The notes under the pieces are model-generated. The model saw only the letters and a program-made list of their open reading frames with translations, was not told the DNA's origin and did no database searches. The translations under genes were made by a program, and so were the position numbers. This document shows, in pieces, positions 5,039-27,331 of a stretch of 39,274 nt of DNA. The DNA is taken from the NCBI GenBank assembly GCA_003331565.1, contig QOPE01000002.1, forward strand, positions 1 through 39,274, given 5' to 3'. This DNA comes from SAR86 cluster bacterium. GTDB taxonomy: Bacteria > Pseudomonadota > Gammaproteobacteria > Magnimaribacterales > D2472. Numbering within the stretch: the first letter of the stretch is position 1; every line of letters starts with the position of its first letter.

Positions 5039-6932
5039 ATGTCCACCCTAGCAATTTTTCCTTTTTTTTCGAGCCATGTCTTTCTATCCCCTGCCCTTTT
5101 CTTTGACAAAAGAAGATCCATCATTGCATTGACATTGTCTTTTGAGTCTATGGTAAGTTGAACCAATTTTCTGGTTGCTGGATCCATAACAGTCTCTCGA
5201 AGCTGGCTTGGGTTCATTTCACCAAGCCCTTTAAACCTTTGAATATCTATTTTTGGGTTTCCTTTTTTAGAACTAAGCTCTTTTACAATCTTATCTTTTT
5301 CTTTTTCATCAACTGCATATAATTTTTCTTTTGCGCAATCTATTCTAAAGAGTGGCGGCATCGCAACATAAATTCTGCCATCTTGAATAAGATTTTTATA
5401 ATGCCTTAAAAAAAGTGCACATAGCAGTGTTGCTATATGTAACCCATCTGAGTCAGCATCTGCGAGGATACATATTTTTCCATACCTGAGGTTTGATAGG
5501 TCTGTTTCTCCAGGATTAACACCCATAGCAGTGGCTAAGTCTTTAATTTCCTGAGACTTAATTATTTCACTGCTTTCTAGATCCCATGTATTGAGAATTT
5601 TTCCTCTGAGCGGCATGATTGCTTGAAAGCCTCTTTCGCGTGCTTGTTTTGCAGAGCCCCCAGCTGAATCACCCTCAACTAAAAAAAGTTCAGTTTCATT
5701 GAGATCGATTGAATTGCAGTCAGATAACTTACCTGGAAGAGCGGGGCCTTGAAAGGTTTTTTTACGTGCGACTGTTTTAACTTCTTTTGATCTTTTCTGA
5801 GCAGATTCAATAGCAAGGTCAGCAATTAGTTCTGCCTCTTCAGTATGCTGATTGAACCAAATACTTAAAGAATCTTTTGTAGCTGCACTGACAAAGGATT
5901 GATGATCTTTAGAATCTAATCTTTCCTTGGTTTGACCGGCAAACTGTGGGTTTTTAAGTTTTGATGAAACAACAAATGCGGCATGATTAATTGTGTCGTC
6001 AGAAGTTAGCTTAATCCCCTTTGGCAAAAGATTTCTAAATTCACAAAATTCTTTAATTGCATCCAAAAGTCCAGATTTAAAGCCATTAAGATGTGAGCCA
6101 CCTTGTGCAGTTGGAATCAGGTTTACATAAGATTCGTTAAGGAGTTTTTTGGAGTTATTCATAACCCAGTTGATAACAAAATCAATTGAATTATCTTCGT
6201 TAGATTTTGAACTTAAAATTGAATCTTTTAAGAGAAACTCTTCCTCTTTAATCTCATCACCTAAATAACCTTCTAAACCATTCGGATACTCCCAAGTTTC
6301 TTTATCGTCTTTTTTAAATTCACTTGCAAATGAAATTTTTAAACCCGGACATAAGACTGATTTTGCCTTTAGTAAATGTTTTAATTTTTTAACATCAACT
6401 TTCGAGGATTCAAAATACTGAGGATCAGGAATAAATCTTATGCTTGTTCCTGTATTCCTGTTGCCAACCTCGCCTGTAACTTTTAATTCTTTTGATTTTT
6501 CTCCGCCACTAAAACTCATTTCATGAATTTTTCCATCTCGCTTTATCGTTGCTGATAAATTTGTTGATAAGGCGTTCACAACGGATACACCGACTCCGTG
6601 AAGCCCACCAGAAAAGTTGTAATCCTCACCAGAAAATTTTGCTCCAGCATGGAGCTTACATAAAATTAACTCGACACCGCTTACTTTATGTTCAGGATGA
6701 ACATCAGTTGGCATCCCTCTTCCATCGTCACTTACTTCAATGAAACCATCCTTAAAAAGATTGATCTTAATTTGAGAGCAATGCCCAGCTAAAGCTTCAT
6801 CAACTGCATTATCTAGGACTTCTTGAATCAAATGATTAGGACAGCTGGTATCGGTATACATACCTGGCCTTTTTCTTACAGGATCTAATCCAGACAGTAC
6901 CTCAATGGATTTAGCGTCGTATTGTTTAGCCA

Positions 6933-6933
<1 letters not shown>
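5035..6933 (-). CDS. parE: DNA topoisomerase IV subunit B
   Basis: 632 aa with GHKL ATPase and TOPRIM motifs ([33 protein letters not shown]). It lacks the roughly 170-aa insertion typical of proteobacterial GyrB. Confidence 0.9.
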
Positions 6934-8639
<1,706 letters not shown>

Positions 8640-8738
8640 TTACTCTAAATAAAAGCTATTAAGTTGTAAGTTTTAATAATAGACTAAAGTATTACTAATG
8701 TTGAAAGTGTTATCTGCAGAACCTACAATGTGCGACCT

Positions 8739-10076
8739 ATGAAAAGAAATAGAAACTATATTTTATTAAGCATATTGAGCATAACTTTTACTATTGAGGC
8801 CGATAATCTTCTTGATATTTATAATGAGGCTCTCGAAAATGATCCGCAATTTAAAGCTGCCGAGTACACCTACTTATCTGGTAAAGAAATAAAAAAACAA
8901 GGTATGGCTGCATTATTGCCAAATATTTCTCTTTCAGGTCAGACCACATGGAATGAATATTATCAGTTAGGAGAACTGCAGAATGAATATAATAGCTTCA
9001 GTCAGGCTGCAAGAATCTCTCAACCCCTTCTAAGACTCGATACATGGTTCAACTTCAGAAGGTCAAAATTTCTTACAGATGCAAGTGAGGCAGACTTTGC
9101 ATTTCAACAACAAAATCTGATCGTTAGAACAGCAGAATTATATTTCAACGTTTTAAGGTCAATTGATAATTTAAATGCAGCTATCTCAGAAGAAGTTGCT
9201 ATTAAAAAACAGTTGGATCAAACAAAACAACGTTATGAAGTGGGTCTTTCTGCGATTACAGAAGTACAAGAAGCACAATTAGCTTATGACGTTAGTTTGG
9301 CCGCAAAAATAAGACGAGAAGGTGAAGTTTTTACGGCTAGAGAAGCATTAAATGCACTTGTTGGCCGTGAGATTGTTTCTGTTGATACGCTAGTAAATGA
9401 GATGAGGGTTACTAATCCTGTGCCTGATTCAAAAGACGATTGGGTTCAAAAGGGAATTGAGAATAACTTTAGACTAAAAGCAGCCAACCTGAGGACCAAA
9501 GCTTCAAAAAATAATGCTAGGAGCGCCGCGGCTAATCATCTCCCTAAAATTGATATTGTCGGTAGCAGGGTGGAGTCAGAAACTAATCAGTTTTCATTCG
9601 ACGGTATTGACACAGGTTCTGCTTTTCAAATTACTGTTCCTGATGAAACACAAAGAGATAATTATAGCCTTCAGTGGAGTGTGCCAATCTTTCAAGGTGG
9701 AGCTGTTAACTCAAGACGAAAGCAAGCTTATGCGGACTATAATAAATCCTCACAAGACGCACTTTTTGTTCAGCGTTCAGTGATTCAAGAAGTTAGATCG
9801 CAATATTCGAATGTTGTAACACTTGTTGCTAATCTTAGAGCTCAGCGTCAAGCAGTTATATCTGCTACAAGTGCACTTGAGGCTACTAGAGTTGGATATG
9901 AGGTCGGAACCAGAAATATTGTAGATTTATTGCAGGCTGAGAAAAATTTATATGCTGCTGAAAGAAATTTAGCAAATGCAAAATATGATTATCTTATGTC
10001 TACACTCAGGTTGCACTTGTCTGCTGGAACCCTTGACCCAAAAAATCTTATCGACATAAACAGTCTGCTAGGATAA
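8739..10076 (+). CDS. tolC: TolC-family outer-membrane efflux channel
   Basis: Signal peptide (MKRNRNYILLSILSITFTIEA), LLDIYNEALENDPQFKAA and two internal repeat halves typical of the TolC/OMF family. ATG at 8739 is preferred over the in-frame GTG at 8730. Confidence 0.85.
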   Translation: MKRNRNYILLSILSITFTIEADNLLDIYNEALENDPQFKAAEYTYLSGKEIKKQGMAALLPNISLSGQTTWNEYYQLGELQNEYNSFSQAARISQPLLRLDTWFNFRRSKFLTDASEADFAFQQQNLIVRTAELYFNVLRSIDNLNAAISEEVAIKKQLDQTKQRYEVGLSAITEVQEAQLAYDVSLAAKIRREGEVFTAREALNALVGREIVSVDTLVNEMRVTNPVPDSKDDWVQKGIENNFRLKAANLRTKASKNNARSAAANHLPKIDIVGSRVESETNQFSFDGIDTGSAFQITVPDETQRDNYSLQWSVPIFQGGAVNSRRKQAYADYNKSSQDALFVQRSVIQEVRSQYSNVVTLVANLRAQRQAVISATSALEATRVGYEVGTRNIVDLLQAEKNLYAAERNLANAKYDYLMSTLRLHLSAGTLDPKNLIDINSLLG

Positions 10077-20404: not shown

Positions 20405-20896
20405 TTAAAGATCTAAGATTTTTTTGTTATGTTGAGGATGTACTTTAATAAACTTTTCTAGGGAATTAAAAAGCAGAAGATATAAGCTCGTACTTAATAG
20501 TAGCCTAAAATCAAAAGGTATTGCCGCAATATAAATTTCAATTAAAGAGCCGCCACCAGATATCCATACGGCGCCATTAACAACAAAAAACCATAAAAGA
20601 ACATTGCTTATACAGCTATAAACAAGATTATTTATCTGTCTACTTACTATTGGGGTAATGAGAAAAATAAAGATAATGCAAAATAAAATTAATAAGTTTA
20701 CTGGGGGCAAAAATATACTCGTAAGAAACATTACTCCAGCAGGCAAAAATGATTGAATACTTTTTCGGCTTGTTAAGCGAGGCATAAAAATTGCGACTGC
20801 TAACATTGGTGAAAAATTAGTGGGCAAGCCTATCAGTCGACTGACAATCAATAGACCAACAAGCAGCATTAAACTCTTATTCATGAATAGATTCAT
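20405..20896 (-). CDS. Small polytopic membrane protein, unassigned (DUF6580-like / solitary S-component-like); candidate vitamin B12 permease
   Basis: GAGGTG RBS 7 nt upstream of the ATG at 20896. 163 aa with 5-6 hydrophobic helices. The N-terminal block SRLIGLPTNFSPMLAVAIF resembles what I remember of DUF6580 putative transport proteins. It is the last gene of the metH-btuB-cobO unit. Confidence 0.6.
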   Translation of the reverse strand: MNLFMNKSLMLLVGLLIVSRLIGLPTNFSPMLAVAIFMPRLTSRKSIQSFLPAGVMFLTSIFLPPVNLLILFCIIFIFLITPIVSRQINNLVYSCISNVLLWFFVVNGAVWISGGGSLIEIYIAAIPFDFRLLLSTSLYLLLFNSLEKFIKVHPQHNKKILDL

Positions 20897-20931
20897 TAAA
20901 TCACACCTCTAGTATTAATTCTGTAGTAGGT

Positions 20932-21537
20932 TTAATAATCGACACCTTTTCTTGCCATAATTTGAGAATTAAATGCATGCTTAATATCTCTAACTTCTGA
21001 AACGGTATCAGCCCAATTCTTTAACTTTTTACCTCCCCCTCTTCCAGTTATAACTACTGACTGATTTTGTGGTCTATTGTTTAGTGCTTGAATGACTTCA
21101 GACTCATCTAAATATTTAAAACTTAACATGTAAGTCAATTCGTCAAGTACCACAAGATGTAAACTTTTATCTGCAAGAGCTTTTTTTGCTAGCTTCCAAG
21201 AAGAAATAGCTGCAGCTTTATCCTTGTCTCTATCTTGAGTGTCCCATGTATATCCGGTCTTCATTTGATGAAAGAGGACCTCAGGGAAATTGTCTTGAAT
21301 AAATTTTTCTTCACCCGATGACTGTTCACCTTTTAAGAACTGAATAACGGCAACTTTATAGCCATACCCAAGTGCACGCATTACCATTCCAAAAGCTGAA
21401 CTTGATTTTCCCTTGCCATTGCCAGTAAGCAAAATACCAACACCCTTATCAATAGTGGCTGCCGATATCGAAGCATCAACATTTTTCTTGAGCTTTTCCA
21501 TTTTAGCTTTATGAGTAGTGTGACCTTTGTTTTTCAA
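20932..21537 (-). CDS. cobO: Cob(I)alamin (corrinoid) adenosyltransferase, CobO/BtuR type
   Basis: 201 aa with P-loop GNGKGKSSSAFG and VVLDELTY, and full-length similarity to CobA/BtuR. Confidence 0.9.
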   Translation of the reverse strand: MKNKGHTTHKAKMEKLKKNVDASISAATIDKGVGILLTGNGKGKSSSAFGMVMRALGYGYKVAVIQFLKGEQSSGEEKFIQDNFPEVLFHQMKTGYTWDTQDRDKDKAAAISSWKLAKKALADKSLHLVVLDELTYMLSFKYLDESEVIQALNNRPQNQSVVITGRGGGKKLKNWADTVSEVRDIKHAFNSQIMARKGVDY

Positions 21538-21547
21538 CTGCCCCTTC

Positions 21548-23455
21548 CTAAAATTGATACCTTATTCCAAGATGTGCTGAAAAGCCTAAAGCTCTATACC
21601 CATAAACTTCTTCATATGACTCATCAAGTAAATTATTAAGTTGGAAGTTGATGATAAATTTATTATTCAATTTATATTTTGCGTTTATATTCAGTAGTGT
21701 AACTTCAGGTAAGGTGACTCTATTAGGAAAGACTATATCAATTTGTGAACTTCTGTGCCTAATATTGGCGGTCAGAAACAATCTATTGGATGAATTCCAA
21801 TTTATATTAAGGCTTGAAATATGCTTTGGTCTTCTAAGCTCATTAACGTAAATTCCACTGGAGTTTGGCTCAATGGAATCAGTATAAGTATAGGATCCAT
21901 TAATTCTAAATCTCTCAGAAAGTTTTCTTGAAAAATTCAACTCGACTCCTTCTCTATGACTCTTACCCTCCAAGTTAATAGCTGTAAATCCAAAAGTAAC
22001 TGGATCTAAGAAATTTCCATTAATCTCATCAACCAATCTGGATTTAAATAATGTAGCTGAAAACAAACTATTGTAATTTTGCAAATCAAAATCAAATCCA
22101 AGCTCTAAATTTTTTGAATACTCCGGCTGTAAATCTGGATTACCAATAAAATTTGTGAAGTAGCCAAAACGCTCAGTGAAAGTTGGATTCTTTATAGCCG
22201 TACCATAGCTACCTTTTAATTTTAATGATTTAGATAAGGGTAAAATCAATTCTGCCCTTGCAGTAGTTCCATTTTTAAATTGAGAATTCTTATCGTAACG
22301 CGAGCTGACTGCAAAAATAGACTCCTGATTAAGTCTGGTTCTGTATTCAATTGATGCGCTGTCAGTTTTTCTTATACGTTGTTGATTAGGATCAAAGATG
22401 CCATAAATCCCATAATCATTGATCGGACCCTGTTGCTTAAAATCCTCATTCTCATGCTCAAGTAATAATGAAATACGTTGATTGGAGTTATCCCAAAAAA
22501 GCGTGCTGATAGATCTAATCTGATTTTTTGATGACTTTACTTTTGTATAAAAAATATCATTAGTATAGTCACAGCTCTGATTGTTTGATTCTGAAATTAA
22601 GATCTGCTGACTTAGATTACCCTCTGAATCAAGATAATTATATTTAAAACCAAAGTGATGATTTTTAAATTTAGCATATTTATCTTGATCATCCACCAAA
22701 CCGTCAAAATCTACATCAGCATCATATTCATTATTACCCGAACTGTAGCTTCCGATAAGTGAAAGCTTAGAGGTATCACTAATTTTCAAATTTGATTTAA
22801 AGTTTAGAGAATCATTTTCATATCCATCTTTTTCATTGCCAGACCTTGAAATATTTGCACCGTCTGTCTTAAATTTTGTAGCTCCAAAACGGAAATCTAA
22901 ATTGCTATTTGACACCCCATTACTAAATCCATACTTTTGAGAATTAAAGCTACCAAGCTCTGAGAAAACATTTGTACTTCTGGAAGTTGTTGCACGTTTT
23001 GTGATGATATTAACAACTCCAGCCATGGCATCGCTTCCAAACATTGAACTTTGTGGTCCGCGAACAACTTCAATCCTTTCAATGTCAGTTGTGATGATGT
23101 TGCCCCAATTAAATTCATCGTTCTGGGAGGCATTATTAACTTCAACTCCATCAATGAGAACAAGAAGATGATTTGCTTCACTCCCTCTTACTCTAACCTG
23201 AATTTGTGATCCTAGAACACCACTCTGACTTACAGATATTCCTGGAACATCTCTAAGCAAATCTGCAAGGTTTAAATGTGGGGTGTTCTCAATGTCTTTG
23301 GAGGATACAACATTTATTGAATTTGCAGAGTCATTAATACTGATTGGAAACAAGGATGCAGCTACAATCGTTTCATCAATTTCTGCTTCCATGTTTAATG
23401 AAAACGATAAAATCAAAATATAAATAAGGCTATAAGATAAGCTCCTAATATACAT
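21548..23455 (-). CDS. btuB: TonB-dependent outer-membrane receptor, BtuB-like (cobalamin)
   Basis: Signal peptide, TonB box DETIVAAS, plug domain (RGPQSSMFGSDAMAGVVNIITK) and a terminal ..GIRYQF. The roughly 610-aa mature size and the neighbours (metH, cobO) point to B12 as the substrate. Confidence 0.8.
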   Translation of the reverse strand: MYIRSLSYSLIYILILSFSLNMEAEIDETIVAASLFPISINDSANSINVVSSKDIENTPHLNLADLLRDVPGISVSQSGVLGSQIQVRVRGSEANHLLVLIDGVEVNNASQNDEFNWGNIITTDIERIEVVRGPQSSMFGSDAMAGVVNIITKRATTSRSTNVFSELGSFNSQKYGFSNGVSNSNLDFRFGATKFKTDGANISRSGNEKDGYENDSLNFKSNLKISDTSKLSLIGSYSSGNNEYDADVDFDGLVDDQDKYAKFKNHHFGFKYNYLDSEGNLSQQILISESNNQSCDYTNDIFYTKVKSSKNQIRSISTLFWDNSNQRISLLLEHENEDFKQQGPINDYGIYGIFDPNQQRIRKTDSASIEYRTRLNQESIFAVSSRYDKNSQFKNGTTARAELILPLSKSLKLKGSYGTAIKNPTFTERFGYFTNFIGNPDLQPEYSKNLELGFDFDLQNYNSLFSATLFKSRLVDEINGNFLDPVTFGFTAINLEGKSHREGVELNFSRKLSERFRINGSYTYTDSIEPNSSGIYVNELRRPKHISSLNINWNSSNRLFLTANIRHRSSQIDIVFPNRVTLPEVTLLNINAKYKLNNKFIINFQLNNLLDESYEEVYGYRALGFSAHLGIRYQF

Positions 23456-23477: not shown

Positions 23478-26400
23478 TTAATATCCTAAAACAGGTGAAA
23501 GCCAAACCTCATTTTCATCAATGCTTTCCCCTCTTGCCTTTGAGTAGGTCTCAATCTGATCTTTGTCAATCCTGCCTAGTTGAAAATAGCGAGATTGGGG
23601 ATGAGAAAAATATAATCCGCTGACGCTTGCAGTTGGCCACATTGCTAGAGAGTCTGTAAGAGATATATTAATTTTTTTCTCAATATCTAATAAATCCCAA
23701 ATATCATTTTTAAGACGATGATCAGGACATGATGGGTATCCAGGCGCAGGACGTATGCCTTGATATTCCTCTTTTATAAAAGCCTCATTATCGAGCGACT
23801 CCTTAGCTGCATACCCCCAAAATTCAGTCCTGACTTTATGATGGGCATATTCAGCAAAGGCCTCAGCAAAGCGATCAGCCAAAGCTTTTAAAATGATTGA
23901 ATTATAGTCATCAAGATCTCTCTCAAAATCTTCAATATATTTATCAATGCCATGCCCGGCTGTCACAGCAAAAGCGCCTATAAAGTCGTCATTTGTATCA
24001 ACAAAATCTGCCAAAGAGAACGAATCAAGATCATCTCTAGATTTTTGTTGTCTCAGACAATGCAAAATAGCTTCTTCATTCGAACCATCAGTTTTTGTAA
24101 CTCCAATTGCATCCCCTAAAGATCTTGCGGGAAATAGTCCAATAATTCCTTTAGGACTGAGCCATTTTTCTTTAATTAGTCTTTCAAGAATTACTTGAGT
24201 ATCCTTCCATAACTTTCTGGCTTCTGGGCCCTTTGAAGGATCGCTTAACAAATCAGGAAATCTTCCGCTAAACTCCCATGCATTAAAATAAGGCATCCAA
24301 TCTATGTAATCTTGTAGCTCTTCGAGTGATGGATTTAATTCAGATATACCAAGCTTAAGAGGTGCTTCAGCTTTTAAAGACATATCTATTTTTGGTCTTC
24401 TTGACTGTGCATCTTCAAAAGGTCTAAGAGGAGATGCTTTTCTTGATGCGAAAGCTTCTCTTTTGTTAGCATGGGCTTTATCCAATTCTTGTTTATATTT
24501 ATCTGGTTGGTTCATCAATTTTTGTGCGACCCCTACAGATCTTGAAGCATCTTTAACGTAGACAACTGAGCCGCTGTATTCAGGATCTATTTTTACTGAA
24601 GTATGTACAGGGCTTGTGGTAGCTCCACCTATAAGAAGTGGAATCTTTAGATTTCTCCTTTCCATCTCCTTTGCAACCCCAACCATTTCATCTAACGAGG
24701 GTGTGATCAAACCTGATAAACCAATAAGATCGCAATTTTCAGCCTCAGCAACATCTAAGATTTTTTCTGTAGGCACCATGACCCCCAGATCAATGACTTC
24801 AAAGTTATTGCATTGCAAAACTACACTAACGATATTTTTACCTATATCATGAACATCACCTTTAACTGTAGCTATAACCATTTTTCCACTTGATTCCATG
24901 GCTTGACCGCCTTTCTCTGCTTCGATGTAAGGCACCAAATAGGCTACAGCTTTTTTCATAACCCTTGCAGATTTAATTACTTGTGGAAGGAACATCTTGC
25001 CAGCACCAAAAAGATCACCAACTTTATTCATGCCATCCATCAATGGTCCCTCAATGACATCTAAGGGTCTTTCTGAAAGCAGTCTTGCCTCTTCGACATC
25101 ATCAATGACAAAAGTATCAACACCCGATACAAGTGAATGATTTAGTCTTTCATTTACATCAAGCTTACGCCAATCTTGATAAGTATCACTTTGCTGAGAT
25201 CCTTTTTTACCTGCATATTTAGGTGCCAGATTAAGTAAATTTTCAGTTGCATCAGGATTTCTGTTCAAAATTACATCTTCAACTGCATCTCTGAGCTCTT
25301 CGGGCAACTCATCATATATAGCAAGCTGGCCAGCATTTACAATTCCCATATTTAAGCCATTTTTAATTGAATGGAATAAAAATACTGAGTGCATTGCCTC
25401 TCTCAGTGTATCGTTTCCTCTAAAGCTAAAAGAGACATTAGAAATTCCACCTGAGATTGAAGAGCATGGGCAACAACTTTTAATTTCTTTACATGCATCT
25501 ATGAATGATTTTCCATATTCATTATGCTCAGTAATGCCAGTAGCAACTGCAAAAACATTTGGATCAAAAATAATATCATGGGGATCTAAACCAACTTCCT
25601 TGGTTAAGAGATCGTAGGCACGTTTTGAGATTTCTACTTTTCTCTTGAGAGTATCTGCTTGACCCTCTTCATCAAAAGCCATTACCACAACAGCAGCACC
25701 GTATCTTTTAATAAGTCTTGCTTGCTCAAGAAAAGGTTGCTCGCCCTCTTTAAGAGAAATTGAATTAACAATTGGTTTTCCTTGAATGCATTTAAGACCT
25801 GCTTCAATGATTGACCATTTGCTTGAATCAACCATGAAAGGAATTTTGGCTATATCTGGCTCCCCAGCTAGCAAGTTTAAAAATTTAACCATAGCGCCCT
25901 CGGAGTCGAGCATCCCCTCATCCATGTTGATGTCAATTACCTGAGCACCGTTTTCAACTTGTTGCCTTGCAATTTGAATTGCTTCATCAAATTTTTCAGC
26001 CTCGATCAGTTTTCTAAATTTTGCTGAGCCAGTTACATTTGTCCTTTCCCCAACGTTAATAAATAAGCCATTTGGGTCAATATCGACCGGCTCAAGGCCG
26101 GAAAGCAACATTGCTTTCGCAGGATCTGATGGTTTTCGAGGTGGTTTATCAGAAATGATGTCCCTAATCATGGAAATGTGCTCTGGAGTAGTGCCGCAAC
26201 ACCCACCTACAATATTTAAAAAACCGTCGCTAGCAAATTCATCTAAAATAGAAGCCATTTCAGATGCTGTTTGATCGTATTCACCAAATTGATTCGGCAT
26301 GCCAGCATTTGGATGAGCGCTAACGTAGCAGTCTGCAATGTCAGATAATCTTTTTAGAAACGGTCGAAGTTCTTCAGCACCTAACGCACAATTCAATCCA

Positions 26401-27140
26401 ATGGAAATTGGTTTTGCATGTTTAACTGAATGCCAAAACGCTTTTGTTGTCTGTCCTGAAAGAGTTCTGCCAGAAGCATCGGTTATGGTGCCTGAAATCA
26501 TCAATGGAATGTCAATTTGCCTTTCAGAAGATACTTTATCAACTGCAAATATTGCAGCCTTTGCATTTAGAGTGTCAAAAATAGTTTCTATGAAAATAAA
26601 ATCTGCACCGCCATCCAATAAAGCTTCGGTAGATTCAGCAAATGTATCAACCAATTGATCATAATTTATATTTCTGTAAGAAGGATCCTCAACGTCTGGA
26701 CTGAGTGAGCAAGTTCTGTTTGTTGGACCCAAAACACCAGCAACAAAGATTTCTCTGTTTTCTGATTTTCCTAATCTATCAGCAGAGTCTCTTGCTAGCT
26801 TAGCTCCGGCAAAATTCAGCTCATACACCAAACTCTCCATTCCATAGTCAGCCATTGAAGGGGCATTTGAATTAAAGGTATTTGTTTCAATGATGGTTGC
26901 ACCCACCTTAATAAATTCATGATGGATATTTTGAATGATATCTGGTTTTGTAATATTCAAAAGGTCGTTATTACCTTTTAAATCGTGCTTCCAGTCCTTA
27001 AATCTTTCGCCCCTGAAATCTGGCTCATTTAAATCATATGACTGAATCATGGTCCCCATTGGGCCATCAAGAAGAACTATTTCTGAATCAAGTAATTTCG
27101 TAAGCTTTTTTCTAGCTGATGATTCTTGTAAATTATTCAT
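23478..27140 (-). CDS. metH: Cobalamin-dependent methionine synthase
   Basis: 1220 aa with Hcy, pterin, B12 and AdoMet domains in order. The B12-binding DxHxxG motif is in GDVHDIGKN. Confidence 0.97.
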
Positions 27141-27173: not shown

Positions 27174-27237
27174 TGATTAATCCTATGGAATTCCGTTTTA
27201 GCCAGTTATTTTTAATCGCTGCAATAGGATCAAATCA
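27174..27237. repeat. Imperfect 13/14-nt inverted repeat with a 37-nt spacer in the metH leader / divergent promoter region
   Basis: TGATTAATCCTAT (27174-86) pairs with ATAGGATCAAATCA (27224-37). On the metH-sense RNA this gives about 13 pairs (7 perfect, one G:U, one bulge), ending 33 nt upstream of the metH ATG. Confidence 0.6.
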
Positions 27238-27331
27238 CGATAGATACTATTTTATAGTTAATTTATTTAATTTCAAATTTTTAAATATATATTAGAGTTG
27301 ATTATGATAACCTGAGACAAAAAAGAAAAAA

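Follow-up and report, generated by a model that had tools for sequence, protein, structure and literature searches.

In the 39,274-nucleotide stretch of DNA analysed here (the window; SAR86 cluster bacterium, contig QOPE01000002.1, positions 1 to 39,274 of the forward strand), the gene at 20405–20896 on the minus strand encodes a 163-residue, six-helix membrane protein that is a divergent member of the Pfam family DUF6580 and a candidate inner-membrane corrinoid importer. It is the last gene of a four-gene cassette, metH-btuB-btuR-DUF6580, and its product is likely, though well short of certain, to be a stand-alone importer of cobalamin-type corrinoids that resembles the S-components of energy-coupling factor (ECF) transporters and acts independently of an ECF module. 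In the proposed mechanism, the BtuB-like receptor would carry corrinoid into the periplasm, the six-helix protein would bind it in an S-component-type cavity and move it over the inner membrane without an ECF ATPase, BtuR would adenosylate the imported corrinoid, and MetH would be the client enzyme. An earlier reading of the same DNA from its letters alone (the sequence-only reading) had proposed an inner-membrane corrinoid transporter analogous to BtuM. The transporter part of that proposal is supported by the conserved operon, co-inheritance with btuR, the S-component fold, the B12 links of the family, and the failure to detect an ECF module, and in most cases a BtuC-type permease, in the cassette genomes examined, whereas the BtuM-type chemistry is not supported. 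We infer transport, substrate, binding mode and energy source alike, and confidence is not higher because, for this branch, the B12 assignment draws chiefly on three things: the cassette, the fold, and descent from a family linked to B12.

Gene and family assignment

The open reading frame is a real gene and not a chance one. Homologues of its product number 22, down to 38% identity, in a set of 5.8 billion proteins, and a profile search retrieved 969 cluster representatives at E ≤ 1e-3. A Shine-Dalgarno sequence, GAGGTG, was read directly at 20904–20909 (minus strand), 7 nucleotides before the ATG at 20896; most homologues begin at the place of a second in-frame ATG, Met5. Cys73 and Cys95 are the only cysteines. 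The 163-residue length, the ribosome-binding site and both cysteines agree with the sequence-only reading, and the five to six hydrophobic segments that it counted correspond to six helices in an AlphaFold2 model.

By score, the protein belongs to DUF6580, as a divergent subclade. PF20221 matches residues 9–150 (model positions 10–155 of 162) with 59.9 bits and an E value of 4.5e-16 (59.5 bits in the genome-level scan of the gene) against a cut-off of 27 bits; core members score 100–190 bits. The resemblance to DUF6580 that the sequence-only reading had suggested is genuine, and the choice then left between a BtuM-like protein, a DUF6580-like protein and a new family is settled in favour of DUF6580. 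There is no NCBIfam model for the protein, and a literature search on ‘DUF6580’ returned no paper naming the family.

Organization and co-inheritance of the cassette

The four genes are co-oriented on the minus strand, with the DUF6580 gene last and only 35 nucleotides from btuR, and they probably form one transcript. The first, metH (23478–27140), encodes a cobalamin-dependent methionine synthase of 1220 residues with all five Pfam domains (NF007024, 1962 bits against a cut-off of 1497). It is followed by a BtuB-like TonB-dependent outer-membrane receptor of 635 residues (21548–23455) with plug and beta-barrel domains, whose best NCBIfam match, TIGR01779 (TonB-B12), scores 256.5 bits, below the equivalog cut-off of 599.7. 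This receptor is 33–35% identical over about 640 residues to receptors that follow cobalamin riboswitches at loci L064, L074 and L083. The third gene (20932–21537) encodes a btuR/cobA-type ATP:corrinoid adenosyltransferase of 201 residues, matched by PF02572 (195.7 bits), NF004637 (232.5 bits, cut-off 185) and TIGR00708 (196.6 bits, cut-off 167.75).

This arrangement recurs in relatives. Long metagenomic contigs show the metH-btuB-btuR-DUF6580 order around a 56%-identical homologue but differ in the genes downstream, and a scan with one genome per species gave 21 DUF6580 loci, the five closest of which repeat the cassette. Among the conserved cassettes (L001–L006, L011–L015), identity to the window is 49–93% for DUF6580 and 42–91% for BtuB, and the flanking genes differ; the DUF6580 sequence diverges down to 47% identity while its position is kept. 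In genus g10 (L036) the order is metH-btuR-DUF6580 with no btuB in between; here, the DUF6580 gene has stayed with btuR and metH through rearrangement.

A phyletic profile covered 41 genomes of the same order, including the 25 of the host family, f1. Within f1, DUF6580 is present in exactly the eight genomes with btuR and always lies adjacent to it, and neither gene was found in the other 17. MetH accompanies them in seven of the eight; the contig of the remaining genome breaks off immediately before the place where metH would lie. The sole member of the genus with MetE is without the cassette. In these genomes the cassette comes and goes as a whole.

Two further observations concern these genomes. 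Across the order, MetH occurs in 10 of the 41 genomes and MetE in one; since most genomes have neither, most members of the order seem unable to convert homocysteine to methionine by either standard enzyme. In addition, one contig labelled Candidatus Neomarinimicrobiota (L011, JAYNUL010000131.1) carries the cassette at 91–97% protein identity to the window, whereas the remaining close copies carry the label Proteobacteria or Gammaproteobacteria; the label is probably a binning error, the alternative being a recent transfer.

Predicted fold and relation to BtuM

The AlphaFold2 model, built from a 16-sequence alignment, has a mean pLDDT (predicted local distance difference test) of 82.8 and a pTM (predicted template modelling) score of 0.75. 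Its helices span residues 3–21, 28–41, 45–60, 68–87, 91–114 and 118–150; there is no soluble domain, and the protein is almost wholly membrane-embedded. The predicted fold is the six-helix fold of ECF S-components. BtuM is the best structural match, with a lead of about one Z unit that counts as a tie by the tool’s own rule, and the two share 12% identity in the structural alignment. MreD scores 8.9 and CbiM 8.1–8.3 in the structural comparison, and when the Foldseek matches were examined a second time, the first chain outside the S-components had a score of 5.6. CbrT is not among the structural matches listed, which is uninformative either way. The sequence-only reading had named an unrelated family, for example an MreD-like one, as an outcome that would speak against a corrinoid carrier; MreD gave neither a profile match nor the best fold match.

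BtuM (BtuM_Td of Thiobacillus denitrificans; PDB 6FFV, 8C7P and 8OVV) resembles the window protein in its setting: the genes are btuB-adjacent and occur in Gram-negative genomes without an ECF module and mostly without BtuCDF. It transports without an ECF ATPase module (PMC6072759), and the window protein, by analogy, may work in the same mode. An S-component fold, a gene beside btuB and the lack of an ECF module, as in the BtuM family, are all found here. That family was defined by jackhmmer from BtuM_Td and is characterized by an invariant cobalt-ligating cysteine, Cys80 in BtuM_Td; BtuM combines binding with chemistry on the cofactor, in that the cysteine drives decyanation (PMC6072759). 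In contrast, the window protein has no counterpart of this cysteine and no detectable sequence similarity to BtuM, and falls into DUF6580 instead. No BtuM chain was retrieved at E ≤ 10 by phmmer, by the subclade profile or by the family profile from a library that contains the BtuM entries. With neither a sequence match nor the conserved cysteine, membership in the BtuM family was rejected.

The analogy to the cysteine chemistry of BtuM in the sequence-only reading is not supported either. Cys73 and Cys95 vary even in close homologues, being conserved in neither position among 16 of them, and cysteine occupies column 73 in 14 and column 95 in three of 119 family representatives; the cysteine and histidine of the family core are Ile121 and Leu24 here. 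Since the alignment of the 16 close homologues contains no conserved cysteine or histidine at all, we infer that the subclade would bind corrinoid with no cobalt ligand from the protein and, unlike BtuM, would not remove cyanide.

Relation to CbrT and other routes across the inner membrane

CbrT is the only solved protein that is reached by the DUF6580 family profile. A profile of 106 representatives matches 6FNP_A over nearly its whole length with an E value of 8e-4 (22.4 bits, profile positions 6–155), and the alignment shares motifs near R..PN..P and S[DN].FLGF. 6FNP corresponds to ECF-CbrT, a vitamin B12 transporter of Lactobacillus delbrueckii that accepts cobalamin and cobinamide (PMC5997447); its 182-residue chain labelled ‘Membrane protein’ was taken as CbrT, judged by size. 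The likeness is remote, as it appears with the family-wide profile and not with the subclade profile. The Pfam family ECF_trnsprt did not match the window protein at E ≤ 0.01, and two other DUF6580 members carry ECF_trnsprt matches, both sub-threshold.

CbrT requires the EcfT/EcfAA′ module, and solitary CbrT without it does not support B12-dependent growth (PMC5997447). EcfT/CbiQ (PF02361) was found in none of five cassette genomes (G000, G001, G004, G008 and G017; 59% to 92% complete, two of them at least 91%), and the control genomes matched; the EcfT/EcfA module that energises CbrT-type S-components is not seen in these genomes. A canonical ECF S-component was rejected for the host organism, whose assembly comprises 801 kb in 38 contigs and is 59% complete, because no EcfT was found. 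A FecCD/BtuC-type permease is present in one of six cassette genomes (G001) and was not found in the other five. In most cassette genomes, imported corrinoid has no other visible inner-membrane route.

In the five cassette genomes, a B12-binding domain was detected in MetH alone, and neither CobS nor methylmalonyl-CoA mutase was found. MetH uses methylcobalamin. As a side observation, btuR is kept although a client of adenosylcobalamin is unseen; class II ribonucleotide reductase was not searched for.

Links between DUF6580 and B12 in other lineages

At the level of the family, the tie of DUF6580 to B12 is strong and independent of the window, owing to riboswitch, BtuB, DUF4430 and radical SAM contexts. 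DUF6580 occurs in 59 of 400 sampled gammaproteobacterial genomes. Forty gammaproteobacterial loci were picked for maximum family coverage, and in 13 of these a cobalamin riboswitch lies 1.9–4.6 kb upstream on the same strand and is followed by a BtuB-like receptor; the 288 kb scanned contained no cobalamin riboswitch in any other position or orientation. The sequence-only reading had asked whether homologues sit behind cobalamin riboswitches or beside btuB, and had counted a lack of association with B12 genes against itself. DUF6580 homologues do associate with B12 genes, and the riboswitch link stands for the wider family but not for the window subclade.

Among 301 sampled Patescibacteria genomes, DUF6580 is present in 73, DUF4430 in 79 and both in 68, and 45 of the 73 genomes with DUF6580 have a co-oriented DUF4430 gene no more than 400 nucleotides upstream of it. 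Transcobalamin-type B12 binders carry DUF4430 as their C-terminal domain (PMC4350170), and scavenging of B12 was the role predicted for the bacterial members (PMC1796856). Three independent Patescibacteria contexts have DUF4430 3–30 nucleotides upstream of DUF6580, with B12-binding radical SAM genes flanking in all three, and one DUF4430-DUF6580 operon follows a cobalamin riboswitch (39 bits against a gathering score of 31.5). EcfT was not found in five Patescibacteria carriers of DUF6580. A DUF6580-DUF4430 fusion (P0137), a single sequence on a 1.9-kb contig, was taken as support for adjacency only.

These pairs resemble the Firmicute ECF systems with transcobalamin-like alpha/beta proteins (PMC1796856; Lactobacillus sakei Lsa1836-1840, bioRxiv 10.1101/864751) in combining an extracellular transcobalamin-like binder with an S-component. 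The Firmicute systems come with EcfT and ATPases, and a link to haem uptake was made for those of L. sakei. In the window cassette, an outer-membrane receptor replaces the DUF4430 binder, and there is no ECF module. One Patescibacteria operon (L038:2200-5567) consists of a cobalamin riboswitch, a prenyltransferase/squalene-cyclase-like protein, a DUF4430 protein and DUF6580; taken together, the first two of its proteins look like a transcobalamin divided into its alpha and beta domains, as in Lsa1840 plus Lsa1839 of L. sakei.

Divergence of the window subclade

The residues that are nearly invariant in DUF6580 (106–119 representatives) are R20, N27, P30, D60, G64, Y71, N107, P127 and F128, with H24 and C121 in the core group. 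In an alignment of 119 representatives, the H-D-Y-C set at columns 24/60/71/121 is common to 70, and the glycine at the column of residue 64 is nearly invariant; the core signature H24/D60/G64/Y71/C121 reads L/S/P/L/I in the window protein. R20, N27, P30, N107, P127 and F128 are kept, and W102, G108 and D129 are additional invariant residues of the window subclade. Besides the retained residues, the window protein shares with core DUF6580 members the length, the six-helix layout and a neighbourhood of BtuB-like receptors and B12-dependent enzymes. Yet many core genes follow a cobalamin riboswitch or a DUF4430 gene, and the window gene follows neither.

Regulation of the cassette

Rfam models detected no cobalamin riboswitch in the window (gathering threshold), in a 7.5-kb region (E ≤ 10) or at 26 loci with DUF6580 homologues from the window subclade and neighbouring groups. 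Cobalamin-riboswitch control of the window cassette was rejected on the results for the window, the genome and these 26 loci.

The metH leader, for which only an inverted repeat had been described earlier, contains a candidate SAM-II (SAM_alpha) riboswitch at 27177–27251 on the minus strand (RF00521, 31.4 bits, below the gathering score of 36; E 3.9e-4), the only notable element there under relaxed thresholds. Three further genomes of the genus have SAM_alpha matches of 27.7–29.8 bits, likewise sub-threshold, immediately upstream of metH (G004:C5:40419-40493, G008:C1:78866-78940 and G002:C7:16099-16173). In an alignment with two paralogous copies, one of which is above threshold (40.8 bits), the GAUUUG, UUGC and GCUAAAA blocks are conserved, and a stem shows a compensatory change (ATCCTAT/ATAGGAT versus CTGGC/GCC(T)AG). 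The minimum free energy fold of the leader is no better than that of shuffled sequence (z −0.10), as expected for a pseudoknotted SAM-II element. It is possible that this candidate regulates the whole cassette. If the element is real, the cassette would follow methionine demand and not B12 supply; as a lead from these sequence features, the signal for the cassette is probably S-adenosylmethionine (SAM), and with it methionine demand, not B12.

Evidence against B12 import and alternative explanations

Several points weigh against the window protein as a B12 importer. All the evidence is computational, and absences in metagenome-assembled genomes are not proof. Neither the subclade profile nor a single-protein search matched any solved structure. 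Searches for a cobalamin riboswitch came up empty for the window, for the genome (59% complete) and for the subclade loci L001, L013, L015 and L036. The cassette-bearing genomes form one related lineage, so that the co-occurrences cannot be counted as independent. The sister family, f2, does not inform the question, the neighbours of its DUF6580 genes being unrelated; MetH co-occurs in three of its four DUF6580 carriers, and one carrier is without MetH. Since signature residues are replaced in the window protein, its binding pocket, and hence its substrate, may differ from those of the core.

The nearest outgroup homologues (35–43% identity), which retain the signature Asp, Gly and Tyr but not the His or Cys, also count on this side, as they have no B12 genes nearby. 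In seven marine Verrucomicrobia genomes (L017, L019, L020, L022-L024 and L031, at about 6000–8800 in each), DUF6580 converges on a Fur-family regulator and a TonB-dependent receptor that is 22–33% identical to the BtuB-like protein of the window, and no cobalamin riboswitch was found at these loci. In K189A-type gammaproteobacteria, the gene lies within an enoyl-CoA hydratase/CoA-transferase operon, and in Rhodobiaceae it adjoins peptidase M3. At two loci (L007:5115-8890 and L010:6978-8474), 38%-identity homologues are translationally coupled to a 148-residue CTP_transf_like gene and a P-loop kinase of the APS_kinase/AAA_18 type, and B12 genes are absent from the vicinity; another cofactor may be the cargo in this branch, and a nicotinamide riboside (NadR-like) system was considered. 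In five nearest-outgroup genomes, a BtuC-type permease was found in none, and B12-binding proteins exceed the Pfam cut-off in three; one genome has a single weak match below the cut-off and one has none.

The alternative that survives best, although unlikely, is that the protein is an S-component-like carrier of another small molecule serving the same pathway, such as cobinamide, a lower-ligand precursor, cobalt or a methionine-cycle metabolite. S-component families readily switch substrates, and the structural matches span a range of them. The replaced residues are the very ones that mark the B12-linked core, the related genes beside nucleotidyltransferase/kinase or CoA-transferase genes fit a change of cargo, and the probable regulator senses SAM and not B12. 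However, salvage of cobinamide or a lower ligand would lead nowhere in the five cassette genomes, as no CobS was found in them; the gene tracks btuR and the BtuB-like receptor and is lost with them; and imported corrinoid would still need passage over the inner membrane, for which most of the genomes offer no other candidate.

An improbable alternative is a function unrelated to B12, the place at the end of the cassette then reflecting lineage history and linkage. It draws on the restriction of the cassette to one related group and on the outgroup neighbourhoods described above. Against this stand the ties of the wider family to B12 in unrelated phyla through riboswitches, BtuB, DUF4430, B12 radical SAM genes and homology to CbrT, as well as the behaviour of the gene itself, which remained beside btuR and metH when btuB left the cluster and kept its position despite divergence to 47% identity.

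Slightly less probable still is a non-transporting membrane accessory, namely a dock that passes periplasmic B12 to another carrier, a BtuR anchor or a corrinoid-processing protein: BtuM itself joins binding to cofactor chemistry (PMC6072759), the inactivity of solitary CbrT (PMC5997447) means that an S-component fold is no guarantee of transport, and the cassette genome G001 has a FecCD-type permease, but that permease was not found in four of the five sufficiently complete cassette genomes and EcfT in none, the subclade conserves no Cys or His for cobalt chemistry, and the protein is almost fully embedded in the membrane without a soluble domain.

ECF-independent import of corrinoid by the window protein remains the preferred reading. 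A more far-reaching version, which we put forward tentatively and regard as rather more doubtful than not, is that DUF6580 is a widespread family of ECF-free B12 importers whose window subclade lost the probable cobalt-ligating His and Cys, rebuilt its pocket and binds intact base-on cobalamin with no ligand from the protein, and that low SAM switches the gene on together with metH rather than B12 switching it off.

Implications and further observations

BtuCDF is predicted in only about half of the bacteria that depend on imported B12 (PMC6072759); DUF6580 may supply the inner-membrane step in many of the others if the import reading is true. It would then be a likely third family of S-component-type B12 carriers, after the characterised BtuM and ECF-CbrT. 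The cassette, gained or lost as a whole, would combine a receptor, an importer, an adenosyltransferase and one B12 enzyme in marine genomes of 1.2–1.4 Mb, a clean system for studying the family, and could mark B12 consumers among abundant ocean bacteria in surveys. The loss of His and Cys in the subclade offers a natural comparison on the need for cobalt ligation in transport.

Some minor observations were made at other DUF6580 loci. An S-adenosylhomocysteine (SAH) riboswitch lies beside the cobalamin riboswitch-btuB-DUF6580 operon and points away from it at two loci (L060:6706-6782 and L064:7034-7112), and a metH-like open frame starts just after the one in L060. In a sister-family genome, an IMES-1 RNA motif (139.7 bits, L035:6165-6354, minus strand) is located about 1.6 kb from DUF6580. 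Finally, a single in-frame stop codon, TAG or TAA, interrupts several of the DUF6580 matches in Patescibacteria (G278:C1:313404-313883, G197:C6:34801-35277, G321:C2:47144-47620, G156:C16:43968-44447 and G078:C24:108120-108473); these could be pseudogenes, sequencing errors or cases of recoding.
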